From the NCBI GenBank assembly GCA_000934665.2, contig JYFJ02001710.1, positions 1-64,000 on the forward strand: a stretch of 64,000 nt of DNA. Reading direction: 5' to 3'. Positions 8,675 to 44,414 of the stretch are shown one piece after another (positions within the stretch are counted from its first letter, which is position 1; the number at the start of each line of letters is the position of its first letter). The position numbers and the translations under genes were made by a program. Origin of the DNA: Catajapyx aquilonaris. Taxonomy: Eukaryota. Below the pieces are notes generated by a model. The model searched no databases, was not told the origin of the DNA, and was given only the letters and a program-made list of their open reading frames with translations.

Positions 8675-9057
<383 letters not shown>

Positions 9058-9747
9058 AATGTATTTTAGTATAATAAAGTTAATATTTGTCTAACCTTGA
9101 TCTTTGCCTGCACATAAGTTATTACATAAGGAAATATTTAAAATTTTAACGTTTTAATTCGGAAAAAAACAGGTGTATAGTATGGCAAAATTACAATAAT
9201 ACCGTATTATTCCTGAAGTAGTTTGCCAACATCCGTGTTTCACGCTGCATAGACTCTATACGTAGAATTCGTCAGTATTATCATGGGGCATGGGCTCTAT
9301 TGGGATCTATTCTGTACAACTATATACGCGTACAGTACGGTATAATTACGCCCCCGCGGCAGGGTACTGAACACACTTTACAAGTAGTGTCTTCAGTACC
9401 CTGCCGGTGTAACCTTTTTCAGTGCAACCCGCAAGGCTGAAAACCCGTTCAATCAGGTTCAAATACCTTGACTCTTGCCAGCCCGCCCGACCGATTCAAA
9501 CTGATTGGACGTGACGTCACGCCGTAGACCGTAATAAATAAATTGATTACTGCCGTATTTCTAATTATTTTATAAAACCGACCGGGGTTGTCGCCACCTA
9601 CGATTTTTCCCCACCCCCTCGCACTCGCTTGACCCGTGACTCTGATACACCCAGATATAGCCCATGTGCAGAATAATGTATAGGTAAGACGTCTTGTTGC
9701 ATGAGCACCTGATGACAACAGGTCAGGAAGCGTGTCCCATTCAAGGC

Positions 9748-9819
9748 GCGATGGTGGTGTAGTGGTCAGCATAGTTGCCTTCCAAGCAGTTGATCCGGGT
9801 TCGATTCCCGGCCATCGCA
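9748..9819 (+). tRNA. tRNA-Gly-TCC: tRNA-Gly, anticodon TCC (copy 1)
   Basis: 72 nt, acceptor stem GCGATGG/CCATCGC, anticodon loop CT-TCC-AA (TCC at 9781-9783), GGTTCGATTCC T-arm, downstream T-run terminator. Confidence 0.96.
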
Positions 9820-10121
9820 CTTCCTTTTTTTTCCCGTTTAAAATAATTAGGAGAGATGGTACAGTACAATCAAACCAACATCTTGGTGCTGTGAACCATA
9901 ATTGCTATTTCATGTTTCATTCGGATTTACCTCATCATGGTCTATCCAAATGATTAGAGTAAACAAGGAATTAGCAGAAATAGGAGAAAATTATCCTACA
10001 TCAGGTAGTACACGTAAATGTCTACACAGAAGACCAATAGTCGGATTGTATTTTTAAACATTTTAGACGGCCACGGTGGGTGGCATCACTTTTCTTACAC
10101 TGCAATATTAATAAATAAACT

Positions 10122-10131
10122 GGGAAATTCC
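10122..10131 (+). promoter_or_regulatory. kappaB-like site GGGAAATTCC upstream of peptide gene 1
   Basis: Exact match to the Rel/NF-kappaB consensus GGGRNWYYCC, about 120 bp upstream of the TATA box at 10253. Confidence 0.45.
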
Positions 10132-10347
10132 GAAAGTTCATAATACTGCGTACCAGTCAAGTTCCAGTGTACAGCTGCAACCTATCGCTGCTATAGGACT
10201 TCAATGCACCAATAGTTCTGCAACTCTGAGCAGCAATTTGGCAAGAAAACAGTATAAAAGCTGCTTACTCCAAGGATCAGTATCAGTCGCTCAGGCGCAC
10301 TTCTTCACACAACACAAGAGCAATCGTCAAGTTCAATTGCAATCATC

Positions 10348-10686
10348 ATGGACGCAAAGGTAATTGAAGTAATAGATTGTTTAATGCCATAGCACTAACT
10401 CACTGTTTCATGTCAAGTGCAGATACTGCTGTTCCTCGTTGTGCTGGGAGTGGTGGCGTGTGTGTCAGAAGGAGGTCACACCCACTACAAGTACGGGTTT
10501 TCCACAAAGGGCAAGTACGGGGCAGCCCAGGTGGAGGCTGGTGCAGATGACCACAAGTGGGGTTTCTCAGTCAACAACCACCACAAGGATGGGGTCAGCT
10601 ACATCAAGCAGAGTGGGGACAACACTCACCACGGAGGATTCGGAGGTGGTGCTGGAGGGGCTGGAGGGTTCGGAGGAGGATTTTAA
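10348..10686 (+). CDS. Secreted Gly/His-rich peptide, copy 1 (exons 10348-10359, 10423-10686)
   Basis: MDAK micro-exon, GT-AG intron, signal peptide, conserved core, Gly tail; TATA at 10253, TCAGT Inr, AATAAA at 10723. Confidence 0.88.
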
Positions 10687-11986
10687 ATGCCCTTTTAGTG
10701 TCTTGTAATACAAGTGGTTTTTAATAAATGCATACAAAAATGTATTCTACGATTATCAACCTTCTTTACGTCAAATGGCGTGGTAATCCTCAAAGAGATA
10801 GTGGTCCCATTATTATGACACCCATAGCCTACTCTATTGCGTTTTTACAGCTACTATGTCGCTCAAAAACATAGAGACGATTTTGCATTTTAATCACGTG
10901 CAGCCTGCACTTGAATCAAATGCAAAATCGTCCAATATGTTTTTGAGCGATATACAAGTAGTACAGTAAAAATTGCCCGAAAATAGCCCCAACAGTGAAA
11001 AAATTGGTACCGTACCTTCCTGAAACTTTTGGTTATAACTCCTATTGATAATGCCGTGCAAGAATCTGAAGAGTCCCTAAAGAATGGGTGGGTGGAAAGT
11101 GGTTTTTGGGGGTGGATGAGGGGGGGAGATGTAGGGAAAAATGAGATCAGCCAAAGTATAAGTGTGGGATGTCCATTCATATGTTTTCTGGCATGCACAA
11201 GCGAATGAAACCATAATCAAGGCCATAAAACCAACAGTTGACGTGATAAAACAAGTTTCCATGAAATTGTTTCCAAGGAACCCAACCCCAGCCCTGCGTA
11301 TACTGTCCCGCATTACTTTTACCGACCTTTACAGACTTCGCCTTCCTGCTGCAAGTACAACGTGCAGGGTAAATTTCAAACAACCTGCGACTTGCAAGTG
11401 CCCCAAGTAGCTATTTTGATTAGCATTGATTAGCACATTGATGTTCGAGAGAGTAGGGTGAAAAGAGACGAACAAGACATGCAGAAACTGTACACTAGGT
11501 TGGAGGTGAACGATCCTTTTTCAAACAAAAGTGATTTTGTAATATCCCTCATAAGTGGAATTACTGGCAATGAATCCATCAACTGTCATTTTGCAAAAGA
11601 GATTGGTACACAAGGCAGGAAGATCTAGGCAACTTTTGCAAGCCATAATTCCTTTCCTGAATATTAATGTAGATGCCACAGGAAAATAGAGCAACCGCAT
11701 CAAAATCAAGAGCTATCTTTCAAAGGTGTTTTGAAACAGGGAACCAAAGTTTCAAGATATATACGATGTGATTTATTTTGGCGTACGACTCAATACATTA
11801 ATTAATTTATTAATCATGATTAGAACCACACACCTGTACTATTAATGACAAACTCAGCCTGAAACTGTGACTTGCCAGCTTGCATTTTCGTTCTCCATAC
11901 AAAACACATGGGCAGAATAATGTATGTAAGACGTCTGGTTGCATGAGCACCTGAGAGCAGGTCAGGAAGCGTGTCCCATCCAAGGC

Positions 11987-12058
11987 GCGATGGTGGTGTA
12001 GTGGTCAGCATAGTTGCCTTCCAAGCAGTTGATCCGGGTTCGATTCCCGGCCATCGCA
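11987..12058 (+). tRNA. tRNA-Gly-TCC: tRNA-Gly, anticodon TCC (copy 2)
   Basis: Identical to copy 1; T-run terminator follows. Confidence 0.96.
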
Positions 12059-13150
12059 CTCTCTTTTTTTAAATCTTATAAAAATCTTTCGGTAGAATTT
12101 AGAGAGATAAGTCAAACCGTGGATTATGGTGCGGGTAAGTTAATGTACTACGTATTTACGTTTTGAAAGGGTATAACGACTAACCAATCTCCCATGCGGA
12201 AACATTTGAACAAGACTGCCGATCCGTTCTAATTCATGGCGATTTACTGGGTTGCAATAATTAAATTTGAGACATTTCAGTGCGTCCGAGAATTCACAGG
12301 ACAAATAGGGTTACAGTATTAGGTTCTCTCCTTGACATGACAGACTCTCACGAACTTGACAAGATATCAGCATACGTACAACAATGTTGAGTTTGTTACA
12401 AAGAGTGAAGAAATCTACGATATTTTAAACTCCTGCATAGTTAATTTGATCCTGAACCGATCCTGTCACGATTTCAGATGTTTTTATCAGTAACTTCATC
12501 ATGGTATATCCACAATATAAGAATAAACCAACACTTAGCAAGTGTACCGGAATATCTCGTTCAGGTCAATCCCTACACAAACGAACAGGTACTCGCTTCG
12601 GCGGTACACACACGAATGAAACGGTAGTCGGATTAAATTTTTGAAGGACATTTCGGACCTATTTCTATGATATGGCTCAGTCTAATTTATATCATTTTAA
12701 CCAATAATAATTTATTGTCGACATCGTACGTGCTAACGTCCAGTAGGCCTACCAGTACCAGTATAATATTATACTTGGTCAGTTGGTCTCTCAAGACAGA
12801 TGCTACCCACAGAACATTTCCGAATGACACGTCCTCCGGATAACTCACCGCGATGACTGAGGGCGATAAAAAACTCGCCAAAATGCAAAGTTGTCTTGCC
12901 TTGCGGATTGTAACTTCTGCTGAGGCAATACTTGTGACATTAGGATAGTTCGTGCTGCATACCAGTCAAGTGACTGTGTACAGCTGTAATCATGTGCTAT
13001 ATAGGACTTTACTGCACCAATAGTTCTGCAACTCTGAGCAGCAATTTGGCAAGAAAACAGTATAAAAGCTGCTTACTCCAAGGATCAGTATCAGTCGCTC
13101 AAGCGCACTTCTTCATTCAGGCAAGAGCAACCATCAAGAATCGAATCATC

Positions 13151-13513
13151 ATGGACGCAAAGGTAATTGAAGTAATGGATTGTTTAATGCCATCGCACTT
13201 ACTCGCTGCTTCATGTCAAATGCAGATACTGCTGGTCCTCGTTGTGCTGGGAGTGGTGGCGTGTGTGTCAGGAGGAGGTCACACCAACTACAAGTACGGG
13301 TTTTCCACAAAGGGCAAGTACGGGGCAGCCCAGGTGGAGGCTGGTGCAGATGACCACAAGTGGGGTTTCTCAGTCAACAACCACCACAAGGATGGGGTCA
13401 GCTACATCAAGCAGAGTGGGGACAACACTCACCACGGAGGATTCGAGGGAGGGTTCGGAGGTGGGGCTGAAGGGGCTGGAGGAGTCGGGGGAGGGTTCGG
13501 AGGGGGATTCTAA
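13151..13513 (+). CDS. Secreted Gly/His-rich peptide, copy 2 (exons 13151-13162, 13226-13513)
   Basis: MDAK exon plus ILLVLVVLGVVACVSG-GGHTNYKYGF...; TATA at 13061, AATAAA downstream. Confidence 0.9.
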   Translation: MDAKVIEVMDCLMPSHLLAASCQMQILLVLVVLGVVACVSGGGHTNYKYGFSTKGKYGAAQVEAGADDHKWGFSVNNHHKDGVSYIKQSGDNTHHGGFEGGFGGGAEGAGGVGGGFGGGF

Positions 13514-15404
13514 TAATTGCCCTTTGCAAATTATAACACAGGTGTGATTTTTAATAAATGCATACAAATGAATAATTTGACAGTTGTTCAACCTTCTTTC
13601 GGTCAAATGGCTTGGAAATCCTCAAGGTAATATTGATCCCATTATTGTGACTCCAACTCTTACGTATTTAATCAGATGAGCCTCACTGATCAACGTTAAC
13701 TTTGTAGTTTCCTTTTATTAATACTAAAATGACCACATAAGTGGTGTATTTATGAATTACTCTGTCAGTCTTGAAATCAGCGTTACAATGTTTTCAGTTA
13801 TGTGTTGTAATAATTGTAACCTGGTTAATCTGAAAAACCTACCCCCACCTTGGTAATGGTGATACACCATCGGAAGAAAGGGAGGTGAGGTTGTGATCTG
13901 ATTGGTATAAATATAATAATATATTGTCGTTCTCATTTTTCGGCAATAACTGATTAAATGACACATTTGATGATCTGATTACCTGTCACTTCTTTTACGA
14001 TACAATGATTATTAGGACTCTACTGCATTTAATTTATAAATTTTTTTCTCATGTGGCATCCTCGACGACAGTATAGGCATGCAGTAGATGATCCTGTAAG
14101 TATGGTCATATGCAATATGACTATAAGCATGATGTAATATTTGGGCTTCCGACGATGAATTAAATCAAAGGCACTGGCTGTCCTTAACTGTTAATATTTA
14201 GCCCTAGCCCAATGCAGTTAATAGCTGTGATATGTGCATAACTTAATTCATTACAAACAGATAGGCAAAAACAGTCCATACAACAACCCCCACTGGGGGG
14301 GGGGGGGGACTGGACAAATGAAACTTTGCAATAGCAGGTTTGTTTCATGGATGAGGCGACTTTTTTATTTGAATCATCAAGGACAATATGTGTACCGTAA
14401 AAATTAGCTATTCACAGGTTTACATGTAGTGTACCACTGTATGATAGTGTATGATGATTTAACTAATAATAAAATTTCCCGTATATTTTTATTTTTCTTT
14501 CTAGAAAAAGTATGTTATATTTCTTTGTTAGCGAGATATATTGACATTTTTTCGAACTTTAATTTTTAATTGAATTTTTTCGCGATTCACGGATAACCTG
14601 GACCCAGATAATCGGGAGTAATGAGTACAATGTATGAACATACATGTATGAAAATATAATACATCTCAGTGTACATTACTTACATGTATGCAAGAAAAAA
14701 AGCTGCAAATTTTACTCACGTACAAGAAGTGTACCCAATTCAACTTTTTTCTTTGTCAAAAATTCCGCAACTGTTTCGCACTTTTCCACACAGAATAAGA
14801 GGTGTTGAGATATGAAAGTTGTTACGTATTGCTAGCAATACCACAATTGATATTAGAAGTTCTAAGACCCAGTATATTGCATGCAGTACAGTCCTCTAAC
14901 TCAACAATGGTGCGGAATCTTGAAAAAGGTGTAGAATGGTGTTTTGTTTCCAATGAGAAATTACAGCTGGACACAAAGTCTAACGTCTATGTTGAATAGA
15001 ACTCTTTCGGGTCTGAAAAGGCTATATCTTTGGGTATTTACTGCTATCAAATGAGCCATCTGGGGAATTTGGAGGTGTACTAGTATTGGCCTTGACCCAT
15101 AGAGCTCGTTAAGTGCATAATCTCAATTTTTTTCTTTTTGGCACTAACCCCCTTTATAATGTCTACTCTTCATTTTTATTAACAACAGTGAGGTGCGTCT
15201 ACCGGTGCAGCACATTCCATCAGGCCTCGTCATGGCAATCGCTTGATTGCACATTCTCAATTTCTTTTTTTGCTAGTCTCCGCCAACATTTTGAAACTCA
15301 TACAGGTATAAAAGCTGTTTCTCACAGACATTTTATATCACTTCCTTCAGCACCTCCAGCAGAAGACATCGCTCGAGGGTTCAAGCCAATCCAATCTATA
15401 CGCC

Positions 15405-15824
15405 ATGGATTCTAAGGCAATAGTCTGATTAAGTTCACTTCAACACAAGAAGGTATAGTTGTTCTCGATATTGACAACGAATTTTCTTAATTGCAACATG
15501 CATCAGATACTGCTGGTCCTCGTTGTGCTGGGAGTGGTGGCGTGTGTGTCAGGAGGAGGTCACACCAACTACAAGTACGGGTTTTCCACAAAGGGCAAGT
15601 ACGGGGCAGCCCAGGTGGAGGCTGGTGCAGATGACCACAAGTGGGGTTTCTCAGTCAACAACCACCACAAGGATGGGGTCAGCTACATCAAGCAGAGTGG
15701 GGACAACACTCACCCCGGAGGATTCGGAGGTGGGGCTGGAGGTGGTGCTGGAGGGGCCGGAGGGGCCGGAGGGGCCGGGGGAGTCGGGGGAGGGTTCGGA
15801 GGGGGATTTGGAGGGGGATTTTAA
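15405..15824 (+). CDS. Secreted Gly/His-rich peptide, copy 3 (exons 15405-15416, 15507-15824; GC donor)
   Basis: MDSK exon followed by GCAATA instead of GT; exon 2 intact; TATA at 15307. Confidence 0.75.
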
Positions 15825-16060
15825 ATGTCCTTTGTATATTATACTAATTGTACAAGGTGGTTTTTAATAAATGCATATAAAATAATTTCAGTTTCTTAAT
15901 AACTTTTGCAGTATATTTCACGAGGTACAGAAAATGCTTACGTCTCCATGCAATCTATAGGCAAGGAAACTCAATAACTGCTTTATCACAGGCATTTAAT
16001 AGTGTCGCAAATGTCAATTCTATAAGTTGTCATTTTGCTGTCATTGTTTTTGGACAATGA

Positions 16061-16129
16061 AGGTCCATTCACACAGGCCGTCGACGGTTTTGGTTTTAGT
16101 TCTCGTCGACGGCCTGTGTGAATGCGCCT
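16061..16129. mobile_element. 69-bp PIF/Harbinger-like MITE
   Basis: TIRs AGGTCCATTCACACAGGCCGTCGACG / CGTCGACGGCCTGTGTGAATGCGCCT with a 3-bp TGA duplication (16058-16060, 16130-16132). Confidence 0.7.
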
Positions 16130-16690
16130 TGATAGTGCAGTACAACATAATTCATACGACAAAATATGCTGCTTTTAGCAAGTAAATCCAATAGCAATCC
16201 CGACCTGAGCATACGTACTTTTCTTATGATGGGAAGTCAATGGGAATCTAGAGATTTGAGCATTTCATCTCTAGTAGATGTGACTGAAAAATCACAGCGG
16301 TTTATTGCCAGGGAGATATGAATATGCAACTTTTTCAGATTCTTGAATTAATGTTGAAGCCACGGGAAAATAGAGTAGCCTTATTAAAAATCAATTGCTT
16401 ATATATCTTTCCTAACCTACGAAACTGAAAACCAAAGTTTCAAGATATACGATGTAATTGCGTTCTTCGCGTAGGCCTACTAATTTACATAGTTTCGCAT
16501 TGTGCAGCGATATAGCCTATTGATCATTATAGTGCTATTCATTACAAACACAGCCTGAAAGTGTTACTTGCCAGCTTGCATTTTAGTTCTCCATGCATAG
16601 CACATGGGCAGAATAATATAGGCAAGACGGCATGTACTCATGTTCAATGAACACCTGAGAGCAGGTCAGGAAGCGTGTCCCATTCAAGGC

Positions 16691-16762
16691 GCGATGGTGG
16701 TGTAGTGGTCAGCATAGTTGCCTTCCAAGCAGTTGATCCGGGTTCGATTCCCGGCCATCGCA
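16691..16762 (+). tRNA. tRNA-Gly-TCC: tRNA-Gly, anticodon TCC (copy 3)
   Basis: Identical to copies 1 and 2; T-run terminator follows. Confidence 0.96.
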
Positions 16763-17457
16763 CTCTCTTTTTTTAATGTTAAAAAATCTTAAGGCAGAAT
16801 AATTGTGACAGATGGTCAAATCTGCATATTGTGGCGCGGGTGAAACAAAATCACGATTTCATGTTTCTATCAAGAATTACCTCATGGTCCATCCAAGACG
16901 GAAGCGTAAACGACTTAATTGGTATAGAAGTATCAGAAAATTACTCTACATCACGTAGGCCTACATGTCAATATTTACACGGAAGACCAATAGTCGGATT
17001 ATATTGTTAAAAGAACATATATAGATGGTGCGAAAAACTGTACACCTAATAATATATGATAGTACACTTACAAGTTAGTCAAGTTTAACATTTAAGCAAT
17101 AACTGTGACATACTGTATATCATGCAACTATCATGCATTTGGTCTTTTGTTACTTTTGTCAGAAGACAGATTCCACCCACAGTCCTATATTACCTATAGG
17201 ACCTCCTGAAAAACCCTTGCGATGACTGAGGTCGATGAGAAACTTGCCTCAGTGCAAAGATGTCATACCTTTCCAGTGATAATTTCTGAGACTGTTCCTT
17301 GTGACAAACGCATGGCAAACGTCACTTCTTGCGGAGGTTCATATTCTCAGTTATCGCAATGGGTGTGGATGGCATTCAAATGAGGAGGTGGGTGGAAGCT
17401 GCTGTTTAGCAGAAGACGCGTAGCTCTAGCTCAGAGTATAAAATTAATACGTAAACT

Positions 17458-17467
17458 GGGAAATTCC
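17458..17467 (+). promoter_or_regulatory. kappaB-like site GGGAAATTCC upstream of peptide gene 4
   Basis: Same motif and similar spacing to the TATA box (17591) as in gene 1. Confidence 0.45.
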
Positions 17468-17680
17468 GAAAGTTCGTATACTGCGTACCAGTCAAGTTCC
17501 AGTGTAATACAGCTGCAACCTATAGCTGCTATAGGACTTCAATCCACCAATAGTTCTGCAACTCTGAGCAGCAATTTGGCAAGAAAACAGTATAAAAGGG
17601 GTTTACTCCAATGATCAGTATCAGTCGCTCAAGCGCACTTCTTCATTCAGGCAAGAGCAACCATCAAGAATCGAATCATC

Positions 17681-18043
17681 ATGGACGCAAAGGTAATTGA
17701 AGTAATGGATTGTTTAATGCCATCGCACTTACTCGCTGCTTCATGTCAAATGCAGATACTGCTGGTCCTCGTTGTGCTGGGAGTGGTGGCGTGTGTGTCA
17801 GGAGGAGGTCACACCAACTACAAGTATGGGTTTTCCACAAAGGGCAAGTATGGGGCAGCCCAGGTGGAGGCTGGTGCAGATGACCACAAGTGGGGTTTCT
17901 CAGTCAACAACCACCACAAGGATGGGGTCAGCTACATCAAGCAGAGTGGGGACAACACTCACCACGGCGGATTCGAGGGAGGGTTCGGAGGTGGTGCTGG
18001 AGGGGCTGGAGGAGTCGGGGGAGGGTTCGGTGGGGGATTTTAA
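17681..18043 (+). CDS. Secreted Gly/His-rich peptide, copy 4 (exons 17681-17692, 17756-18043)
   Basis: MDAK exon, 63-nt intron, intact exon 2; TATA at 17591. Confidence 0.9.
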   Translation: MDAKVIEVMDCLMPSHLLAASCQMQILLVLVVLGVVACVSGGGHTNYKYGFSTKGKYGAAQVEAGADDHKWGFSVNNHHKDGVSYIKQSGDNTHHGGFEGGFGGGAGGAGGVGGGFGGGF

Positions 18044-19212
18044 ATACCCTTTTCAATAGTGTCTTGAATACAAGTGGTTTTTAATAAATGCATACAAAAA
18101 TGAATTCTACAGTTTTATCAACCTTCTATACGTCAAATGACGTGGTAATCCTCAAAGAGATAGTGGTCCCATTATTATGACACCCATAGCCTACGCAATT
18201 GCCTTTTTACATGTACTGTACACCAATTGAGTCTCACTGATCAGCATTAACTTTGTAATATCCTTTTATCCTTAAATTGGTCACACAGTTGGTACCTTTA
18301 CGTACACACATATACAAGCTTATCAGTCATGAAATCAACATTACCATGATTGTTTTGGCTAACTAGATATATTATTAATACTACCTTACTGTACCCATAA
18401 CTCCTCCCGAACCGTATGGCCTACAACTTGGGGAGTGCTCTCAAAATTTTCCCGTGTCATCTTCTATAATTATATGCCCACCACTTGTTATTTTTGCAAA
18501 AGGTGCCCAGGGAATTTGTAAATCGCAAATACCAAGAGGCTCAAGGTCATGAGGACACGAACAGCTCCACGAACTCCCTAACTCTGCCGCTCGGCTCTCT
18601 GGTCGGAGTTACCTGCGCCCCTACTTCTGAACGTCACCCCAGATGTCGTGACCGTCGCATGTCTTTTGCCAAAATTTGGCAACTGGCTACCTAGTGCATT
18701 ATTGTGACTTGGAGTGCGGAAGCTATCCCCGAACCATGGTATTATAGACTTGACTTTTATACCTGTGGTGGTAAAACGTAGGTACAATCTGGAGAAAGGG
18801 GAGTGGGAATGTGATATGTTTGGCTGCAATAAGTGTTTTTACTTTTCCTTAAATAATCATTTCGGGGATATCCGAATAAATGTGTGGTGCAATAGGATAA
18901 TCAGCACAATGTAATATTGTTTTAGATTTACAATTGGGAATTAAATCGAAGTCATTGGTTGCTCTTCTACGGTAATAATATTCAGCTCTAGTCAAATAAT
19001 AGCACAAAATAATATATTATGCACAATGTATTTATCGCAAATGTGCAAAAAACAGTCCATAACAAGTCGACATAGATGTGGGGAGATTCGAACACAGTAA
19101 TATATATGACTTCCTTTACTCTCTGAATTATATACCTTCCATCTGCAGACTCTCTTTTCTTCTGCATAGTGATGTCCAGCACCAAAGTTTATAGAATGAG
19201 ATAGACTTCTAT

Positions 19213-19620
19213 TTACCCTGGTGTCCACCATATGAACAGTGCTCCTTGCTCCTCGACTTCTTCGTCCTTCTCCTCCTTCTTTTCCTCTTTGACGAAGTAA
19301 GACACCTTCTGGATGATAGTGATTGGCACCTTCTTCCCAACCGGGACATTGTACACCACTGGCACCTTGTAGACCACTGGGGCATGCTTCACTTCTGGCA
19401 TCTTCACCACGTAGGGTCGAGGCTCTTAATGTGCACATTCGGAACCTTCACTATATTATATTATAATCATGTGCATAGATATTAAAGGCTAATATTTATG
19501 ATCACGTGCTTTATCTTCTTCTCCGTCTTTGGAGCTTCCTAATTTGACCTGCAGTCACAGATAAGGCCTCTCTTAATCTGCAAACTTGTGCACAATGTAC
19601 GGAACTATTACCTTTGTGTC
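19213..19620 (-). pseudogene. Degraded Val/Pro/Lys/Tyr-rich low-complexity (structural-type) protein fragment
   Basis: The minus strand reads IVKVPNVHIK, then after a 1-nt frameshift EPRPYVVKMPEVKHAPVVYKVPVVYNVPVGKKVP...KEEKKEEKDEEVEE. Upstream fragments KVIVPYIVHK and EAPKTEKKIKHV are separated by stops. Confidence 0.45.
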
Positions 19621-20353
19621 TATCAACAAAAATAAATATATTGTTGTTGTGTCGTCGTTGTTGTTACAAACCCGCGTCATCCGTCAATTATTATCTCTGA
19701 GACTGCTTAATGCAACTGACTTTATAATTTTACCAAAAAACTCCTTCTTAGAATTTTTATAAAACTGCAAAATGCCCAAGGGGGTAATCACTTCGGTACT
19801 CCGGTGTACACCTGGGAGTGGTACTCCCTGGTACTCCTCAGGCACCTCACTCTTTATTACTCCGTGGTACTCCTTGAATTTGGTACTCCAGTGTACACTT
19901 TTCAGTCGAGTGATTACCCCCTTGAAAATTCCTATTATAACTTTAAAGAACTGCTGCTTATTTAATCTAACACTGTATGTCGTACAGTGCTTTTTGTGGC
20001 ACACAGTTGAACTGTATACGACCTCCCCGGCTTTGCATGCACCTTTTAAACCCTGGCATATGACACAAATGCTAAGCCATGGAAGTAACATGAGGCCGAA
20101 TGAATGCTAGTCAGACACTATGTCAGTTATTTGTATTAATAACCGTGAGTTGCCCCTACCAGTGCACCACTTTCTATTCGGCCTCATGGCAATCGATTGA
20201 TTGCACATTATCAATTTCTTTTTCTGCCAGTCTCCGCCACATTTTGAAACAAATGCAGGTAGCCTATAAAAGCTGTTTCTCTCTTATATTTGATGATCAC
20301 TTCCTTCGACACCTCCAGCAGAAGACATCGCCCAGTCCAATCCAATCTACGCC

Positions 20354-20765
20354 ATGGATTCTAAGGTACCGTTCATTCCAACCCAAGAAGCCCCTTTTTA
20401 TTAACGTCAATTTTTTTGATTGCAACGTGCAGATACTGGTGGTCCTCGTTGTGCTGGGAGTGGTGGCGTGTGTGTCAGGAGGAGGCCACACCAACTACAA
20501 GTACGGGTTTTCCACAAAGGGCAAGTACGGGGCAGCCCAGGTGGAGGCTGGTGCAGATGACCACAAGTGGGGTTTCTCAGTCAACAACCACCACAAGGAT
20601 GGGGTCAGCTACATCAAGCAGAGTGGGGACAACACTCACCACGGAGGATTCGAGGGAGGGTTCGGAGGTGGTGCTGGGGGGGCTGGTGGTGGGGCTGGAG
20701 GAGCTGGAGGAGCTGGGGGAGCTGGGGGAATCGGGGGAGGATTCGGATTTGGAGGAGGCTTTTAA
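20354..20765 (+). CDS. Secreted Gly/His-rich peptide, copy 5 (exons 20354-20365, 20433-20765)
   Basis: MDSK exon, GT-AG intron, long Gly tail; TATA at 20265. Confidence 0.9.
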
Positions 20766-22119: not shown

Positions 22120-22405
22120 CTATCGTGCAGGGACAGGGTAGGGACAGGAGGGGGGGGGACACTGGTGCATGTGCAATGTCTCAGGTTGGGGGTCGTGTGC
22201 AGTCCCTCAGGCCAAGATGACCCCCTAGATGCGAGTCCGAAACCTCCACTGACCCGCACGTCCTCCAGGGAAGGGAAAGGAAGGAAGCGGCTGTGGCCTA
22301 TTTTACGGTACGATTCTGGAAATTATTCCTGGGGCGACCTTGGGAAACCACAAAAAACCAAGGTCAGGATCGCCGGCCTCCGGGATTCGAAACCAGGACC
22401 TCCCG
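22120..22405 (-). mobile_element. Partial tRNA-derived SINE(s)
   Basis: Body GGAAGGAAGCGGCTGTGGCCTA...GGGAAACCAC.AAAACCA and B-box-like GGGATTCGAAACC, similar to 8870-9010; the left part resembles 26250-26335 inverted. Confidence 0.55.
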
Positions 22406-22782
22406 CTTATAATACCTGCAAATTGATGAAATTATAGTCAATATAATCCTAGTCGTACATACTGTAGAATTAGTTAGTAATTAATGCGAGTAGATTTCGT
22501 ATAGCAAAAATTATTTTTACTATATATCTGTCGTTGCTGACCCAAGTTCAAGCTTACTGAACCAGAAAAGAGCAGTGGATTACGTACTTTTTGAACAATC
22601 ATCAGTTTCTTCATCTGGTACTCCCCTCTCCCAGGCCATAATGCTCGCCTGAATGCACACTCTCAATTTCTTCCACCCCACCAATCATATAAAAAGACTC
22701 GATCTCTCAGAGGTCTGATATCACTTCACTCAAGCTCACTGTACAGCAGACAGACAGAGTTCCTCCTGGTCTAATCAACACC

Positions 22783-23181
22783 ATGGATTCCAAGGTAATC
22801 AATAATTTCATTGCAATCCGAGAAGTCAGTGATATTAACTAGGACATTGTTGATTGCAACATGCAGATATTGCTGGTCCTCGTTGTGCTGGGAGTAGTGA
22901 CGTGTGTGTCAGCCGGAGGTCACATCAACTACAAGTACGGGTTTTCCATCAAGGGCAAGCATGGGTCAGCCCAGGTGGAGGCTGGTGCAGATGACCACAA
23001 GTGGGGTTACTATGTGAACAACCAACATAAGGATGGGGTCAGCTACATCAAGCAGAGTGGGGACAACACTCACCACGGAGGATTCGAAGGAGGGTTCGGA
23101 GGTGGTGCTGGAGGGGCTGGTGGTGCCGGAGGTGGTTTCGGTGGGGGTTTCGGGCTGGGAGGAGGATTCGGAGGGTTTTAA
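22783..23181 (+). CDS. Secreted Gly/His-rich peptide, copy 6 (exons 22783-22794, 22867-23181)
   Basis: MDSK exon; core variant GGHINYKYGFSIKGKHGSAQ...HKWGYYVNNQHKD; TATA at 22688. Confidence 0.9.
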
Positions 23182-23773
23182 ATGCCATATATGTATATTA
23201 TAATGCAACTTGGTTTTTAATAAATGCATACAAATTAATTGTAATCTCATAATAACACCTTTGCAGTACAACACACCATACAGTACCAAGACATGAAAGC
23301 TTTTGATCTATTATGCAGCTCGCAATTTTCTAACAAATCACCTTATTACAGGACCATGTCCTAATACTACAGAAATTAAGCAGAGCACACGCCATAGCAG
23401 GATGTAAGCTTTCAATTTGCCATGCATCAAAGAGAGAACATATTACAGGACACAACCGGTAAAACATGATCCAGCTTATCATTATCAACAACACGATTCA
23501 ATTATTCGTGTTTTAGGGCCTATATCTCCGGTTGTCAGTGTGAAGCGCACACAGTATTAGTACAGCACACCTTGCATAGGTTTTTCTAAGTAACGGTTTC
23601 CGCCTATGTACTCTCTGATATTTAACTGTCTCATTTGAAGATGTAAGACAATTTTCCAATTACACTTCTTGAAATGTGGCTGATTTCAAGAAGATTATAA
23701 CTTTTAATCTGATTGGACCTATTGTTCCGAATTTCAGTTCTTTATTGTCCGTTCTCATCATCCGACCACCGTG

Positions 23774-25774
23774 ATGGAAGTGACGCGTTTCATACTGATG
23801 GCATGGCTGACAGTGGCACCGTACTTGCAAATACAGGTACTGACAAGTAACCTAACTCTATCTGGTGAGGACGAAGATTTGGTTAAGCAGCTGGTGGAAC
23901 ACCTATTGCAATCAGAATTCAGCAGGTGCTCTCTGGTAGTGTCCACTGACGAGCCACGGATTGGCAAGAATGGGCAAGATCTGATTGCCAGCCAAGCACA
24001 ACAATACCGTCAGTCATTGTTAATTCGGATGGATGCTTTCACACTCTCTTACAAAGATTACCCGGGCACGCTCAGGCAGAGTCAGCTTTATGATTTCCGC
24101 ACCATGCCTCCTGGGCTCAAGTCCACCTTGTGGCCAGGTGGTTCCTGTACCTTCCACCTCTTCTTGGTATCCACACCTAACGTTCTGTCCAACCTGATCA
24201 TTCACACAGCATCTTCGGTTAAGTTTAAGAACCTCTACGACACCTTCTTGTTTCACTTCAATGGTGGTGATCCAGGCAATGTCATGCTCAGCACCCTGGC
24301 CAATGGGATCAGATTCAAGCTGGCCACTACAATGACCCAGAGTGGACTTAGCATGTCCACAGTCTGCATGTTTTGCAATGGAGGCCAACATCAAAATATG
24401 AAACTGGGCTTGTTTGATAGGAATCGTGTCATGGGTGACCTTTACCCCGATTTTTCGACCAACTTAAACAAGGCATTAGTAAAAGTATTGTATTTCTTTC
24501 CCATGGATATGGAAGAGGTGCGCAGGCAGCGTGATGAGCATGGTGAGATTAGTTTAGACTTCGTTGCAAAAGCAGTTCTCCATGTAGAGCATGTGTGTAA
24601 CGCCACAGTAGAAATAGTAGAAATGACTATTGAAGACGATAAACTTGACACACCCAATCCAAATGGCAGCTGGAGTGGGGCAACTGCCGATGTTATGAAG
24701 GGAACTGTAGACGCATCTACATTCACCATGTTTCATGACACTGTTGGCAGATATGCATATCTTGCTTACCCAACTATGTTTGGAAGTATCATGTTTGTTA
24801 GCAGATTAGCTCGACCTGTAATTCGATGGGAAGTAATTGCTGAACCATTTACATTGAAGGCCTGGCTTTTTATTGCATTTATGATGATTATATCTACAGT
24901 TGCAATACACTTAATTAATCGGAAAAGAGCTGATTATGGCGAAGACTCTGAGACGATCACTATGATTAGTTCCCTGAACTACACTTTTCGCTTACTGATT
25001 TCACAACCAATGGAAATATCTCATTTTGCACCTCATTACTCTTTTGTGGCTTTTTTCTCCATGTTTTGTGTGATAGTGTCTACTGCTTACATCAGCAAAA
25101 TAGTCGCTTTCCTGACCTATCCTAGCAAAGAATTCGTACCTACAACATTTGAAGAGCTGATCAATTCTGATTGGAAATGGGGAATGCCAACGGAGGAGTT
25201 CATTGCAACAAAAGTTCTCTTTGCTGATTCACAGAATCCTTATCATAAAATTGTTATGGCCAATTCTCTCTTAATGGAAAGTATCGATATATGTTTCAAA
25301 AATGCAATATTTCAAAAGAAATTAGTGTGCATTGCCCTTAATGCCCGAATTGCTATGGAAGAGACGAAATATTTAGACACCACTGGTAAATCAACTATTG
25401 TAAAGTCCAAGGAAACTCTGAACAGTAGATATAACACTTTTGTTTTTAGTTATTCAGCAACATATGCTCCTTACTTAGACAAACTTAACGTGGTATGCTT
25501 TGAACAGGGCATTACAGATAAATTTATTAATGACAATTCGTTTTATAATTTTGTTTCCCACGTTTTGCGTCATAGAGATAAAATGATAAAAGCAGCATCT
25601 AATGATGATGTTCTGACTGTGGAAAAACTTTCCACCATGTTTCTTTTGTGGTCACTAGGGTTAGGTTGGTCTGTACTTGGATTCATCTTCGAAATATTTA
25701 GCCATAAAAAGAGCACATGGGTGGATAATACCAGTAGAAAAGTGTCGCCAACAGCATTCGAATTCTTGAGATAA
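23774..25774 (+). CDS. Divergent ionotropic receptor (IR / variant iGluR), intronless, copy A
   Basis: ~666-aa ORF with S1-like NGSWSG..ADV.KG.VD, EPFT..AW plus M1, M3-like TAYISKIVAFLTYP, PTTFEEL and a C-terminal M4 (LTVEKLSTMFLLWSLGLG). Confidence 0.88.
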   Translation: MEVTRFILMAWLTVAPYLQIQVLTSNLTLSGEDEDLVKQLVEHLLQSEFSRCSLVVSTDEPRIGKNGQDLIASQAQQYRQSLLIRMDAFTLSYKDYPGTLRQSQLYDFRTMPPGLKSTLWPGGSCTFHLFLVSTPNVLSNLIIHTASSVKFKNLYDTFLFHFNGGDPGNVMLSTLANGIRFKLATTMTQSGLSMSTVCMFCNGGQHQNMKLGLFDRNRVMGDLYPDFSTNLNKALVKVLYFFPMDMEEVRRQRDEHGEISLDFVAKAVLHVEHVCNATVEIVEMTIEDDKLDTPNPNGSWSGATADVMKGTVDASTFTMFHDTVGRYAYLAYPTMFGSIMFVSRLARPVIRWEVIAEPFTLKAWLFIAFMMIISTVAIHLINRKRADYGEDSETITMISSLNYTFRLLISQPMEISHFAPHYSFVAFFSMFCVIVSTAYISKIVAFLTYPSKEFVPTTFEELINSDWKWGMPTEEFIATKVLFADSQNPYHKIVMANSLLMESIDICFKNAIFQKKLVCIALNARIAMEETKYLDTTGKSTIVKSKETLNSRYNTFVFSYSATYAPYLDKLNVVCFEQGITDKFINDNSFYNFVSHVLRHRDKMIKAASNDDVLTVEKLSTMFLLWSLGLGWSVLGFIFEIFSHKKSTWVDNTSRKVSPTAFEFLR

Positions 25775-27358: not shown

Positions 27359-27830
27359 ATGGATTCTAAGGTAGGTATCCGAAATGCATTGTGATGTACT
27401 GTACAGTACTTTGTACAAGTATTTTTCAGCTGTTAATATGGCAGTTTAATGTAAGCTATGGCATATACTGCAATAACAATTTTGTCCATTACATATGCAG
27501 GTATTATTCCTCCTTGTGGTGGGAGTGCTGGTCTGTGTGTATGCTGGTGGTCACACCCAGCACAAGTATGGTTTCGCCATCAAGGGCAAGTACGGGTCAT
27601 CCCAGGTGGAAGCTGGTGCAGATGACCACCACTATGGGTACTCAGTCAACAACCACCATAAGGATGGGGTCAGCTACATCAAGCAGAGTGGGGACAACAC
27701 TCACCACGGAGGATTCGAGGGAGGGTTCGGAGGTGGAGTGGGTGGGGGCTCTGAAGGTGCTGGAGGTGCTGGAGGTGCTGGAGGTGCTGGAGGGGTCGGG
27801 GGAGGGTTCGGATTCGGAGGAGTCTTTTAA
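27359..27830 (+). CDS. Secreted Gly/His-rich peptide, copy 7 (exons 27359-27370, 27501-27830)
   Basis: MDSK exon; VLFLLVVGVLVCVYA-GGHTQHKYGFAIKGKYGSSQ...HHYGYSV; TATA at 27247. Confidence 0.9.
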
Positions 27831-28456: not shown

Positions 28457-28696
28457 ACATGACTCATATTCTTGAAAATGTGGACATACAATACTTCTAC
28501 TGGTGGAGGGCGAGATCTTACTCAGCTCTGATGGTGCATTTTGAATATTACAACATAACATTCAATCAACAAGTATGACAGTAATGACACATTGGATGAT
28601 TGATATGAGTCAAAAGGAGCAAATTATTAAAATCAAGCTTATTTCCTGGGGCTGTGTGTTTTGGGAATACAATCGCTATTTTTCGTGGCTGTCAAT

Positions 28697-30235
28697 TTAA
28701 GAGTCACATTCGGCTTTCCAGTCAGATGGAATGAAAGGATTAGATATGGTTACAAACTTATCCAATGGACAGAGCTCTTCGCAATTGGGTATTGTCAGTA
28801 TCTCAAAGTCCTCTTTAGAGTCAGTTGAAAGAAGGATCTGGAAATAACACAACACCTTGTGTAAGTGATATCGTTCCTGCACCTGCACTCTGATAATAAT
28901 ATTATAAATATTTTAATGGCTGTGTCCCATTCATGCACATACCTTCACAAAGTAGTTATCTGATATTTCATGCAGTTCAAATGATAGCACTGTACCGTAT
29001 GGTGGTTGAAACGGTTCTGTTGCATTTAATGTCCTGGCGATCATTCCTGCAATGTTACCATCACTTACACTGTTCAGGTACAATACCCGTGATGAAGGTG
29101 TCAATGTTCCGTTCTTAAAGCCAGTAAATGTATCTACAATACTCTTAAGCATGGGTCCTGTGAATAAAGTGGCCTTGGATGAGTACCAATGGCCATTTTA
29201 CTTATATACGAACCAATTCTGAGCCTCTTCAGTTCAAACGTGTATGTTTGAATTGTTTGAGCGAAAAGCATTACTTGGTCCATTTGTTTTGGAAAATATT
29301 TCTCAGTCCAAGTAGGCAAAGTCAAGTTATTCTCCTTCTGAAATGGACAGCATGTAGATACACTTGAACAACAACGTTCCTATGTGAATAATATTGTTAT
29401 CTCAACTGACCTCAACTTTCAAAGTGTCGTACAGCTCGTAAAAGTCTCCAATATTTTTGACACTTTTTCCTGAATTTGTCTCCAGATATTTCCACATTTC
29501 TGTGCACTGTTGGAGAAACTTGACCACTTCTGGAAGGCCAGCCACAATCATCAGCTGCGACAGCGCTTGAGGGCAATAAGCGCTTAAATTTAGCTACGAA
29601 ATTAGAGAATAATCATCAAATTCTGGTATTTCTATAGGTGAGAGACACGTCCTTACAGGATCATCTTCTGTAGGCACGGTGTGTATCGGGATAGGCTGCC
29701 ATGGCATACCTTTCAGCCAAACCTGTCTATTCTCAGCTGGGTACAGACCGGCTAGAAATCCTTCACCACTCATTAAAGTTCTAGCTAGATCTAGACTCTG
29801 AATATGAACGAAATCATCCTTGAAGTACTCGGGGATAAATCCGTCGTATTTTGAGCGAAAAAGTTGGCCACGTTCGTACATCCTCAGTTTTCCAGCCTGT
29901 TTAACATCGAGTACTGTACTATTCGATGTGTTGCCTTATAAATATTAATAAATGAGCGAAACACTTACGTTGGTCAGTTGAGCCCAACCTTCCGGCCAGA
30001 GGGAAGGGTCATTATAAGGGTCATTAGGGTAGGAAGTCAAAGGTGCTCGATCTCCATGTCTGAAAAACTTTTCAACACAACCCATCACTTTTATTTATCT
30101 AACTACGCGTCTGTTAGATGCATTATGAACATAAAGTCAAAATATACTTACGGCATATATTAACCTTAATGAGGCGTCATTGCAGCAGATATATGAAACA
30201 TATCCAGTGAATAATAAAAACTTCAGGAATTGCAT
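28697..30235 (-). CDS. Secreted histidine acid phosphatase (prostatic/venom acid phosphatase-like), copy A, 7 exons
   Basis: Signal peptide exon 30152-30235, FFRHGDRAP exon 29969-30067, WQPIPIHT, TLPTW, PPYGTVLSFEL, CPLDKF...DWKAEC stop; no TM tail; the HD motif reads SD. Confidence 0.9.
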
Positions 30236-30916
30236 TCTGTTCACTAGCTGTTCCGCTTGAGCACTGACAAGTCCCTGAAGATGAACGTGAACGATTGTGA
30301 TAATAAGCTGTTAAAAAATTATCTGATTTTTAATCTGTTCAGACTTCAGTGGTCACGCCTGTAATTGCCTTTCACCTTGTATCATCTATCATTCTCATAT
30401 CTATTGATACCAGAATATAGGCCTCAATATTGATTCACTTCATGTTGTGTAATAGTAAGTAGACATGAATATTGCATAGCAGATCCTAATATTGACACTA
30501 TGTAATTCCTAATTCCTGTGCCGAATAAAAGGCATGTAGCCTATATGCCTTGTAATTTGCACAATGTTTGTGTTCCAAGGACACATCGATCCGATCTTAC
30601 TCAGCAGGTGGTGCCTTCTGGATTTTTCCAACATATTCAATAGCAAACATGTTACACGGGGTAATTGATATCACACCAAATAGTATTTGTATTATTTCAA
30701 CAACGTGTATCACGACGTACTAGGTCAACTAAGACATATCCGCGCCACTGAGGCAAATCCATATTTTCCCGCTGGCCAACACCTGTAATATATTTTGCAA
30801 GGAGCATTAACACACACTATACTATAAAAGCCCACTGCTGTTGAGGCTGAGTATCAGTTTTCCTCCAACCACTTGTCGACTGAAGCTAGTCCACCTAGTC
30901 ACCAACGTGAATCACC

Positions 30917-31366
30917 ATGGATTCTAAGGTATCCGAAACTCACTGTGATGCATTGCACTTATATTATTGAGTTGTTAATAATATTATGGCAACAGAATGT
31001 AGGCTACCTCTAATTATACTGCAGTAACAACTTTTTTCATTACATATGCAGGTATTATTCCTCCTTGTGGTGGGAGTGCTGGTCTGTGTGTATGCTGGTG
31101 GTCACACACAGCACAAGTATGGTTTCGCCATCAAGGGCAAGTACGGGTCATCCCAGGTGGAGGCTGGTGCAGATGACCACAAGTGGGGTTTCTCGGTCAA
31201 CACCCACCACAAGGATGGGGTCAGCTACATCAAGCAGAGTGGGGACAACACTCACCACGGAGGATTCGGAGGTGGAGCTGGAGGGGCTGGAGGGGCTGGA
31301 GGGGCTGGAGGAGCTGGAAGGGCTGGAGGAGTGGGAGGGGGATTTGGCTTCGGAGGAGGGTTTTAA
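30917..31366 (+). CDS. Secreted Gly/His-rich peptide, copy 8 (exons 30917-30928, 31052-31366)
   Basis: MDSK exon, intact exon 2; TATA at 30823. Confidence 0.9.
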
Positions 31367-31483: not shown

Positions 31484-32327
<844 letters not shown>

Positions 32328-33482: not shown

Positions 33483-33910
33483 ATGGATTCTAAGGTATCT
33501 GGAACTCACTGTGATGCTCTGCATGTATTTATTCAGTAGTTGTTAATAGAGCAGTATAATGTAACCTACTGCTATGTCATATACTGTAACAGCAATTTTT
33601 CATCATTATACACATGCAGGTATTATTCCTCCTTGTGGTGGGAGTGCTGGTCTGTGTGTATGCTGGTGGTCACACTCAGCACAAGTATGGTTTCGCCATC
33701 AAGGGCAAGTACGGGTCATCCCAGGTGGAGGCTGGTGCAGATGACCACAAGTGGGGTTTCTCAGTCAACAACCACCACAAGGATGGGGTCAGCTACATCA
33801 AGCAGAGTGGGGACAACACTCACCACGGAGGATTCGAGGGAGGGTTCGGAGGTGATGCTGGAGGAGCTGGAGGGGCTGGAGGGGCTGGAGGAATCGGGGG
33901 AGGGCTTTAA
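33483..33910 (+). CDS. Secreted Gly/His-rich peptide, copy 9 (exons 33483-33494, 33620-33910)
   Basis: MDSK exon, intact exon 2 ending GGGL; TATA at 33372. Confidence 0.88.
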
Positions 33911-34124
33911 AAACCTTCTAATTTAAGTGTAATTCGCACAGAAATCAATAAAGGTGACCTGTTCGTCATAAACATTGCATGTCTATTTAATTCACACAGC
34001 CTCTATATTTACAATAAGTTATATATTACGTTCCAGTGAAGGTGAACTGAACCAAATTCATGTGACTATGACCAGTATGACGTCACAATAACTTTTGAGA
34101 GTACTTGAGAGGAATGCTGGGAAT

Positions 34125-35601
34125 TTAAGCATCACATTCTGCTTTCCAGTCAGATGGAATGAAAGGATAAGATATGGTTACAAACTTATCCAATGGACAG
34201 AGCTCTTCGCAACCTGGTATTGTCAATATCTCAAAGTCCTCTTCTGCGTCAGTTGCAAGAAGGATCTGGAAAAACACGTTTGCGTAAGTGACATTGTCCC
34301 TGTATAGTAAGAGAAATTCATGCACGTACCTTCACAAAGTAGTGCTCCTCTATTTCATGGAGTTCAAATGATAGCACGGTACCATATGGTGGTTGAAACG
34401 GTTTCGTTGCATTTAAGGTGGCAGCGATCAATCCTGCAATATTAACATCGTGTACGCTGTTAAGGTACAATCGCCGTGACGATGGTACCAATGTTCCGTT
34501 CTTGAACGTAGTAAATGTGTCTACAATACTCTTAAGCATGGGTCCTGTGAATAAAGTCCCTCGCATCAGTGTCAATGGTGTTGTAGTAAATCTGAAGAAC
34601 TCATATACAAACCCATTCTGAGCCTCTTCAGTTCGAATGTGTACGTAAGCAAAATTCGTCCGAACATGAAAACATCTTCCATTGGCTTTGGAAAACATTT
34701 TTCAGTCCAAGTAGGCAACGTCAAGTTACTCTCTTTCTGAAATGGACAGTATATAGACACATGATGTTAAATCAAGTTCTCTCAACTGACCTCAATCTTC
34801 AAAGTGTCGTACAACTCGGAAAAGTCGATAATATTTTTTAAGCGTTTTCCTGATTTAGTTTCCAAATATTTCCACATTTCTGAGTATTGTTGGAGATACT
34901 TGACCACTTCCGGAAGGCCAAACACACGCCTCAGTTCCGCAAATGCTCGTCGGCAATTAGATCCTTGATATACCTATATAAAATAAGAAAATAATTCTCA
35001 ATTTATATTTCCACGAATTATAAACATGTGTCTTACTGGATCCTCTGCTTTAGGCAATGTGTGTATAGGGATTGGCTGCCATGGCATACCCTTCAGCCAT
35101 ACTTGTCTATTATCAGCAGGGTATAGACCGGCCAGAAATCCTTCACCACTCATTAAGGTTCTGGCTATATCTGTACTCTGCACATGAAGGAAATCATCTC
35201 TGAAGTACTCAGGGATGAATTTTTCGTATTTTGAGCGAAAAACTTGGCCACGTTCGTACAACCTCAGTTTCCCAGCCTGTTTTGCATTCAATGTATTAAA
35301 CCAAAGGAAATAAACAATGAATAAATTAGTAATAAACTTACATTGGTCAGTTCACCCCAACCCTCAGGCCAGATGGAAGGGTCATTGTAGGGGTCATTAG
35401 GGTAGGATGCAAACGGCGTCCTCTCTCCGTGTCTGAAAAACTTATCAGGACATCAATACGTCATAACTCTAAGTAAGTGAACGAGCGTCTTGAATAAATA
35501 TGTCAAAATATACTTACGGCATATATTAACCTTAATGAAGAATTATTGCAGCAGACAAACGATATATATCCTGTGAATAATAATAATCGCAAGAATTGCA
35601 T
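34125..35601 (-). CDS. Secreted histidine acid phosphatase, copy B, 7 exons
   Basis: Signal exon 35518-35601, RHGERTP, WQPIPIHT, intact SVHDVNI motif, CPLDKF...DWKAECDA stop; same intron positions as copy A. Confidence 0.92.
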
Positions 35602-44271: not shown

Positions 44272-44414
44272 CATGTCCGAACCTGAATAAAAACAGTGAT
44301 GTCCAATCACGTCTATTTTACTTCCGCGCGCATTATATTTGAAAAGTAGCGGCTACATGTAGCCGCTACCTGTGGCCGCTACTTTCGGCCATAATCAGCT
44401 GATGGGGGTCAACA

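Follow-up and report, generated by a model that had tools for sequence, protein, structure and literature searches.

Three tRNA-Gly(UCC) genes in an array of glycine-rich peptide genes of Catajapyx aquilonaris: passive co-duplication as the probable origin

Why would an array of glycine-rich peptide genes contain tRNA genes for glycine? The question is raised by a stretch of 64,000 nucleotides from Catajapyx aquilonaris (GenBank assembly GCA_000934665.2, contig JYFJ02001710.1, positions 1 to 64,000 of the forward strand), hereafter the window, in which three tRNA-Gly(UCC) genes lie among the genes for a family of small peptides. An earlier note on this DNA had suggested that the two kinds of gene were amplified together and that the peptide genes favour the codons read by this tRNA, and had named passive hitch-hiking during duplication as its null hypothesis. 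Our analysis favours the null. We consider it probable that a functional tRNA-Gly(UCC) gene was passively co-duplicated with one subtype of the peptide repeat unit, and that the codon bias is a by-product of a minisatellite. In brief, nine of the twelve peptide genes have no tRNA gene, the repeat unit that holds the tRNA gene is colinear, the excess of GGR codons (GGA and GGG) is confined to the tails of the peptide genes, GGA by itself is not significantly enriched (p = 0.11), and tRNA-linked and unlinked genes do not differ in their use of GGR (p = 0.48).

The tRNA genes and the unit that holds them

ARAGORN found three tRNA genes in the window, all tRNA-Gly(tcc) and all on the plus strand, located at 9748-9820 (copy 1), 11987-12059 (copy 2) and 16691-16763 (copy 3). 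Rfam family RF00005 matches each of them with 66.4 bits, the gathering score being 29, and in every copy ARAGORN places the anticodon, (tcc), at position 34. Each of the three pairs is identical at 73/73 positions, in agreement with the identical and intact genes reported in the earlier note. A run of T begins 6-7 nt past the discriminator (last) base of each copy, which is position 9819 in copy 1. The run is T8 in copy 1, where it looks like a Pol III (RNA polymerase III) terminator, and T7 in copies 2 and 3. Every copy contains GGTTCGATTCC, which is B-box-like, and the copies also hold an A-box-like stretch, TGGTGTAGTGG. Both were recognised by eye, and GGTTCGATTCC is what we take to be a faultless fit to the consensus of the B-box.

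Conservation extends to the 29 bp upstream of each tRNA gene (9719-9747, 11958-11986 and 16662-16690, plus strand), which are identical at 28-29 of 29 positions between copies. The 22-mer CAGGTCAGGAAGCGTGTCCCAT lies directly 5' of each tRNA gene and occurs exactly three times in the window, with 0 matches in 100 shuffles. The flank pattern given in the earlier note, ACCTGA...CAGGTCAGGAAGCGTGTCCCAT.CAAGGC, was recovered at all three copies, and a metagenome scan with the 22-mer gave 0 matches. Outside the tRNA gene and the 29 bp block, identity between copies is 80-83% at -129..-30 and 40-60% at +13..+112. At 10-22% neutral divergence, 7-16 substitutions are expected per pair of tRNA genes (73 bp) and 0 are observed; the Poisson probability of zero changes per pair is 7e-4 to 1e-7.

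Since the three copies are identical throughout amid diverged flanks, we regard them as maintained. The invariance of the tRNA gene and the 29 bp block is a sign of working tRNA genes under purifying selection, of gene conversion, or of the two together, and the tRNA genes are probably functional, working Pol III genes. A conserved block upstream of a tRNA gene (tDNA) is not unusual in itself, because passages of a survey of seven animal genomes (PMC3082873) report upstream motifs, at approximately -40 to -10, that are common to tDNAs which read the same codon.

The peptide exon occurs 12 times in self-BLAST, from 10.3 to 44.3 kb and always on the plus strand, and eight of the twelve exons are within 3 mismatches of a 41-mer. 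All twelve paralogues are intact. The linkage is thus 3/12 and not 3/4, as it would be if the peptide genes ended with the fourth. The tRNA genes lie on the same strand as genes 1, 2 and 4, and the ATG follows the 3' end of the tRNA gene at 527, 1091 and 917 bp, respectively, which confirms the 0.5-1.1 kb noted earlier. The co-amplification that the note had described holds for the subtype formed by these three genes, but not for the family.

This subtype, type A, consists of gene 1 (10348-10686, 91 aa; exon 1 at 10348-10359, a 63 bp intron and exon 2 at 10423-10686), gene 2 (13151-13513, 99 aa) and gene 4 (17681-18043, 99 aa). All three begin with MDAK and have a 63 bp intron; their upstream 250 bp are 85-91% identical and their introns 90-100%. 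Type B comprises the MDSK genes 3 (15405-15824, 109 aa) and 5 (20354-20765, 114 aa), with 85% identity upstream, and gene 6 (22783-23181, 108 aa) is more distant. Type C comprises genes 7 (27359-27830, 113 aa), 8 (30917-31366, 108 aa) and 9 (33483-33910, 100 aa), with 85-89% identity upstream. By their non-coding sequence gene 10 (39070-39498, 100 aa, MDIK), gene 11 (41467-41874, 102 aa, MDLK) and gene 12 (43981-44271, 79 aa, MDLK, with a short Gly tail) are singletons. Every coordinate range starts at the ATG.

Non-coding sequence of type A is approximately 55-73% identical to that of the other types or gives no usable alignment. A tRNA gene is present at 3/3 type A genes and at 0/9 of the others. 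A permissive BLAST of the three tRNA-bearing spacers gave no match outside these three units, and Rfam at E<=1 found no further tRNA-like sequence between 8000 and 46000, except for a SINE-like element (short interspersed element) at 8980-9047. We also considered an ancient presence of the tRNA gene at all twelve genes followed by loss at nine, and rejected it on finding no remnant of the tRNA gene or its flank; a very old loss is still possible.

The three type A units, all on the plus strand, are built alike: upstream flank, tRNA gene, spacer, peptide gene and 3' flank. Unit 2 (11663-13718) and unit 4 (16347-18269) are colinear throughout, aligning from 324 bp 5' of the tRNA gene through the spacer (60% identity) to approximately 200 bp past the stop codon. 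The corresponding self-BLAST blocks are 11663-12098/16347-16800, 12466-12939/16851-17306 (the 60% block) and 12933-13718/17457-18269. Unit 1 (9651-10855) has a shortened spacer compared with units 2 and 4, and its alignment starts approximately 90 bp 5' of the tRNA gene, with the blocks 9657-10058/16597-17011 and 10104-10855/17440-18217. The tRNA gene is interior to this repeat unit of approximately 1.2-2 kb, and would therefore be copied with any duplication of the unit. The linked genes form one clade by non-coding sequence, so that one origin followed by two duplications suffices. We suggest that two duplication events after one ancestral juxtaposition would explain all three copies.

We infer the following order of events. 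A nuclear tRNA-Gly(UCC) gene would have lain in the spacer upstream of the type A (MDAK) ancestor, and unequal crossing-over would have duplicated the type A unit of approximately 2 kb twice, copying the tRNA gene both times as it lay inside the unit. The tRNA gene and approximately 29 bp upstream would then have been kept by purifying selection on Pol III genes, by homogenising gene conversion, or by both.

Tandem arrays are hard to assemble, and the three units might be a single tRNA-bearing unit wrongly collapsed or expanded by the assembler. We consider this extremely unlikely. The window contains one N, at 32966. The flanks of the units differ by 7-60% and the spacers by large indels, and therefore the units are distinct loci and not one read set. 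In four DNA runs from one sample and study, 61-75% of the words sampled from 9600-18100 are present, although the assembly may have been made from these runs, which are thus not independent; a fifth run with the same species label contains next to none.

The tRNA genes could also have driven the amplification themselves, as 102 bp blocks of tRNA gene plus flank that act as substrates or hot spots for unequal recombination. The three blocks are near-perfect direct repeats, 2.2 and 4.7 kb apart, but exon 2 offers a longer and equally identical substrate in every gene (98-100% over 210 bp in genes 1-5). In addition, the homology of the units extends well past the tRNA block on both sides, which places the duplication breakpoints away from the tRNA gene. 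This explanation is accordingly very unlikely.

The similarity of exon 2 deserves a comment of its own. Its first 210 bp, the head, are 98-100% identical among genes 1-5 (window 10423-20640), although the promoters of types A and B are unrelated, giving no alignment. The introns of genes 1-5 are 64-100% identical where they can be aligned, and those of genes 2 and 4 are 100% identical. The identity of the heads points to gene conversion or to very strong constraint that includes synonymous sites. Because the heads are near-identical while the promoters are unrelated, we read gene conversion as active in the array.

Glycine codons and the demand for tRNA-Gly(UCC)

Glycine accounts for 349 of the 1222 codons (29%) of the twelve peptide genes, encoded by 149 GGA, 100 GGG, 77 GGT and 23 GGC. 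For gene 1 the hand count of the earlier note, 22 Gly codons made up of 10 GGA, 6 GGG, 5 GGT and 1 GGC, was reproduced exactly. As background we used 18 stop-to-stop open reading frame (ORF) pieces of the window with Pfam hits, 9 of the 27 scanned ORFs being excluded because they had no hit. These pieces contain 211 Gly codons (75 GGA, 41 GGG, 55 GGT and 40 GGC), and their ends may include some non-coding bases.

Set against this local background, the peptide genes do favour GGR, as the earlier note had proposed (249/349, 71%, versus 116/211, 55%; Fisher p = 1e-4). The preference is not significant for GGA alone (149/349, 43%, versus 75/211, 36%; p = 0.11), nor is it found along the whole gene. 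In the tail, 186 of 228 Gly codons (82%) are GGR and 130 of the 228 are GGA. In the head GGR makes up 63/121 (52%), which does not differ from the background (p = 0.65), GGA (19/121) is significantly below it, and GGA is absent from all 7 Gly columns of the mature head. Gene 12 reaches only 38% GGR. The tRNA-linked genes have 58/77 GGR (75%) and the unlinked genes 191/272 (70%), a difference that is not significant (p = 0.48). The claim that these genes prefer the codons of the tRNA thus stands for GGR over whole genes, but is not supported for the head, nor at a significant level for GGA by itself.

Tandem Repeats Finder (TRF) resolved the tails as period-9 arrays with the consensus GCTGGAGGG or GCTGGAGGA, present in 2-7 copies, the copy number varying by paralogue. 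The dominant codon pairs are GGA-GGG, GGA-GGA and GGA-GGT, following a hydrophobic or Glu residue. The GGR excess lies wholly in this (GCT GGA GGG)n minisatellite tail. Since the tails are period-9 arrays, the bias would have been inherited through slippage of one founder unit, and the 349 Gly codons are far from independent. We therefore suggest that the richness in GGA and GGG came from slippage expansion of (GCT GGA GGG)n, the array coding for the (A-G-G)n tail, and that codon-by-codon selection to match the tRNA would not be its source. The codon bias would then be a case of minisatellite expansion and not of translational selection.

A different explanation is that the repeat unit is a supply-and-demand cassette. 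Open chromatin at the type A promoters would co-activate the adjacent Pol III genes and raise tRNA-Gly(UCC), at a particular time and in a particular tissue, in the secretory cells that transcribe the array, which we regard as unlikely, and the additional tRNA would serve messenger RNAs with 22-38% Gly among the mature residues, which is similarly doubtful. The isotype does match, with Gly at 349/1222 codons and GGA the commonest Gly codon (149/349), but there is no preference for GGA outside the minisatellite, where the head has 19/121, and linked and unlinked genes are alike in codon usage (p = 0.48). Each tRNA gene is oriented like its peptide gene, with its end 527-1091 bp 5' of the ATG, and three copies with their 29 bp upstream block were preserved while the flanks decayed. 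Nevertheless, 9 of the 12 paralogues have equal or longer Gly tails and do without a tRNA gene, the linkage is not general to the client family and has left no remnants at the other nine genes, and only two duplication events lie behind the apparent co-amplification.

Precedents exist for tissue-specific use of tDNAs, reportedly also in the tRNA-Ala genes of the silk gland. Parts of a report on the Arabidopsis SYY cluster (PMC12308677) describe tissue-specific use of tDNAs matched to a biased product, and anticodon-specific upstream motifs of animal tDNAs are described in passages of the survey cited above (PMC3082873). Full-text literature searches found no report of a physically linked client and tRNA cassette in animal nuclear genes, which is weak evidence. 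Two further points speak against the cassette: in eukaryotes GGG is mainly read by a separate tRNA with the anticodon CCC, and against the hundreds of tRNA genes that an animal genome typically has, three more count for little. The part of the survey that we draw on gives 430-605 tRNA genes for mouse, human and C. elegans (PMC3082873). That the youngest, still-amplifying peptide subtype carries its own cognate Pol III gene, switched on by the open chromatin of the adjacent, highly active promoters of RNA polymerase II (Pol II), seems improbable to us. If it were so, each added unit would add to the need for GGA decoding and to its supply alike, and a functional link would make the locus a compact case, in an animal, of gene order that ties the supply of a tRNA to the codons needed for a secreted product specific to a tissue.

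Passive co-duplication, the reading that we prefer, has points against it as well. The amino acid carried by the tRNA is the residue that forms 29% of the codons of the family (349 Gly). Gly-UCC genes make up a few percent of animal tRNA genes, as a rough estimate, and the chance of a Gly-UCC match in a single event is therefore also a few percent. In all three duplicates (3/3) the tRNA gene and the upstream block remained intact and identical as the DNA around them decayed. This shows maintenance of the copies or of the set, as a functional cassette would also predict. Finally, the family-wide GGR excess is statistically real, and demand for Gly-UCC in the expressing cells would therefore be high. 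It should be noted that the match between tRNA isotype and the composition of the neighbouring genes rests on one juxtaposition that was copied twice, and we see an instructive caution in this.

Insulators and other known systems

The tDNAs might act as chromatin boundaries or insulators, or as elements of interference between Pol III and Pol II promoters, that separate the type A genes from their upstream neighbours. Each tRNA gene does lie in the gap that follows the 3' end of one unit and precedes the promoter of the gene after it, and every copy has a B-box, the site for TFIIIC. Insulator activity of tDNAs is reportedly the subject of a review by Van Bortle and Corces from 2012. It is also described in reviews cited by PMC11346459, in the part of that paper that we draw on, and a position between adjacent Pol II units is what the array shares with the tDNA insulators and TFIIIC boundaries mentioned there. 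The same part of that paper reports that the three-dimensional organisation of the genome changed little when tRNA genes were rearranged in synthetic yeast. Nine of the 12 genes do without a tDNA, and, unlike in the case of tDNA insulators, 9/12 junctions of the array lack one. The sequence offers nothing that separates an insulator role from mere presence. We consider a boundary role quite improbable.

Passive co-duplication resembles the birth-and-death duplication of animal tDNAs in its identical tRNA copies, colinear units and diverged flanks. It is unlike ordinary tDNA duplication in that a Pol II gene is part of the unit too, and the product of this gene is rich in the amino acid of the tRNA. 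For tRNA genes to travel with a tandem duplication is nothing unusual; their coincidence with a Gly-rich client we regard as a curiosity, and on present evidence we put it down to one event. A functional link between the tRNA genes and the peptide genes is, in our view, probably absent.

The tRNA-Ala genes of the silk gland are reportedly a system in which tRNA supply is tuned to a Gly/Ala-rich secreted product and in which the 5' flank of the tDNA decides tissue specificity. The conserved 29 bp 5' block resembles that system in idea. The tDNAs of the silk gland, however, are not known to be interleaved with fibroin genes, and the conserved flank described here may be no more than a trace of recent common descent or of gene conversion.

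The SYY cluster of Arabidopsis, consisting of tRNA-Ser and tRNA-Tyr genes, is likewise an instance of tandem tDNAs proposed to serve cognate-rich proteins in a specific cell type. According to parts of the report (PMC12308677), deletion of the cluster alters the accumulation of a Ser/Tyr/Pro-rich glycoprotein in root-cap cells. SYY is described there as a large cluster of tDNAs only, regulated by heterochromatin and with its clients elsewhere, whereas the array described here has three tDNAs, each embedded in the repeat of a client gene.

In its gene architecture the array also recalls the sea-urchin Sp185/333 (SpTransformer) genes and those of silk-like structural proteins (PMC4944945). The shared features are reportedly a small leader exon followed by one main exon, clusters on the same strand, variable Gly-rich repeats and His-rich parts. 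Unlike with those proteins, the resemblance does not extend to sequence, as no relationship was detected, and the proteins of the array are shorter (79-114 aa).

The peptide family and the surroundings of the array

All 12 peptide genes have the same anatomy. A TATAAA is located 83-119 bp 5' of the ATG, exon 1 consists of 4 codons reading MD[A/S/I/L]K, the intron is in phase 0 and 51-130 bp long, and an AATAAA follows 15-60 nt past the stop codon. Eleven genes have a GT-AG intron, whereas that of gene 3 is GC-AG. The donor of gene 3 (15417-15422) reads GCAATA, which may be a GC-AG intron or the mark of an inactivated copy; the reading frame is intact.

The products, 79-114 aa long, consist of a hydrophobic leader, a conserved head and a Gly-rich tail. 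The N-terminal hydrophobic leader is present in 12/12 products and was modelled as a helix by AlphaFold2. The head of approximately 55 residues is well conserved, with 37 invariant columns among the 12 paralogues, and the tail is composed of (A-G-G)n and GGGF units and differs in length among paralogues. The cleavage site of the leader was placed by eye, without a signal-peptide predictor, and on this basis Gly makes up 22-38% and His 6-15% of the predicted mature peptides, which lack Cys and have a pI of 6.4-9.1. We predict that the products are small, secreted, low-complexity peptides rich in Gly and His. Cleavage after the small residue at the end of the leader would give a putative mature N-terminus of Gly-Gly-His (GGH) in 11 of the 12 paralogues and of Gly-His in gene 12. 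An N-terminus of the form X-X-His is the amino-terminal Cu(II)- and Ni(II)-binding (ATCUN) motif, and several antimicrobial peptides that are rich in His carry it. The GGH N-terminus thus suggests a metal-binding secreted peptide.

Few relatives of the peptide were found. A search of 5.8 billion proteins gave 1 match, a 66 aa fragment, and a profile search of 1.84 billion proteins gave 3 matches at E<=0.001. Two of these are short fragments (P0001 and P0002); the third, a repeat protein of 1350 aa with E = 6e-4, was judged spurious and rejected. Pfam gave no family at E<=10, and in the ESM Atlas the best values were 0.80-0.84, to arthropod cuticle or His-rich clusters, below the 0.9 threshold for a lead. 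Of 437 patterns that the peptide profile matched in a metagenome scan, not one was confirmed. AlphaFold2, run on the alignment of the 12 paralogues, gave no confident fold (mean predicted local distance difference test score 49, predicted template modelling score 0.20), the leader helix alone being confident. Pfam, the ESM Atlas and the profile search revealed no detectable homology to a described family of Gly-rich antimicrobial or structural peptides. The peptide family is thus a near-orphan and appears to be lineage-restricted, with almost no relatives in the databases searched. An array of 12 intact near-orphan genes for Gly/His-rich peptides, 11 of them with a predicted GGH N-terminus, is worth recording in its own right.

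The array abuts the 5' end of parkin. Gene 12, the last and most divergent member, ends 131 bp before the ORF for the ubiquitin-like domain of parkin (window 43981-44933 for the two together). Pfam recognised parkin in the window in three ORF pieces, corresponding to the ubiquitin-like, RING0/RING1 and IBR domains. Its best relatives are 52-61% identical and are spread over arthropods, vertebrates, echinoderms and amphioxus. Other Pfam matches in the window are several adhesion G protein-coupled receptors (HRM, GPS and 7tm_2), the delta subunit of the mitochondrial ATP synthase, fragments of a histidine phosphatase, a prenyltransferase exon, and a ligand-gated channel domain in two ORFs.

The two ORFs with the ligand-gated ion channel domain are long and uninterrupted (23708-25774, 688 aa, and 36555-38549, 664 aa; plus strand). 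The histidine-phosphatase fragments are duplicated on the minus strand, at 28688-30266 and 34116-35627. As the channel ORFs and the phosphatase fragments are interleaved with the peptide genes, a larger segmental duplication also shaped the array.

Repetitive and tRNA-like elements complete the picture. Just upstream of the first tRNA-Gly gene, on the minus strand at 8980-9047, lies the tRNA-like element mentioned above, which scores 37.7 bits in Rfam and is not called by ARAGORN. The stretch 8887-9017, which overlaps it, recurs at 22279-22409 with 80% identity, and because of this recurrence we regard the element as probably a tRNA-derived SINE. Two long, perfect or near-perfect hairpin palindromes are located between genes, at 10851-10961 and 16057-16133. 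In Rfam they gave only sub-threshold matches to families of microRNA precursors, and they look like foldback elements of the type of miniature inverted-repeat transposable elements (MITEs). Two perfect microsatellites, (GTA)19 and (TAA)19, stand back to back at 31852-31963 (TRF).

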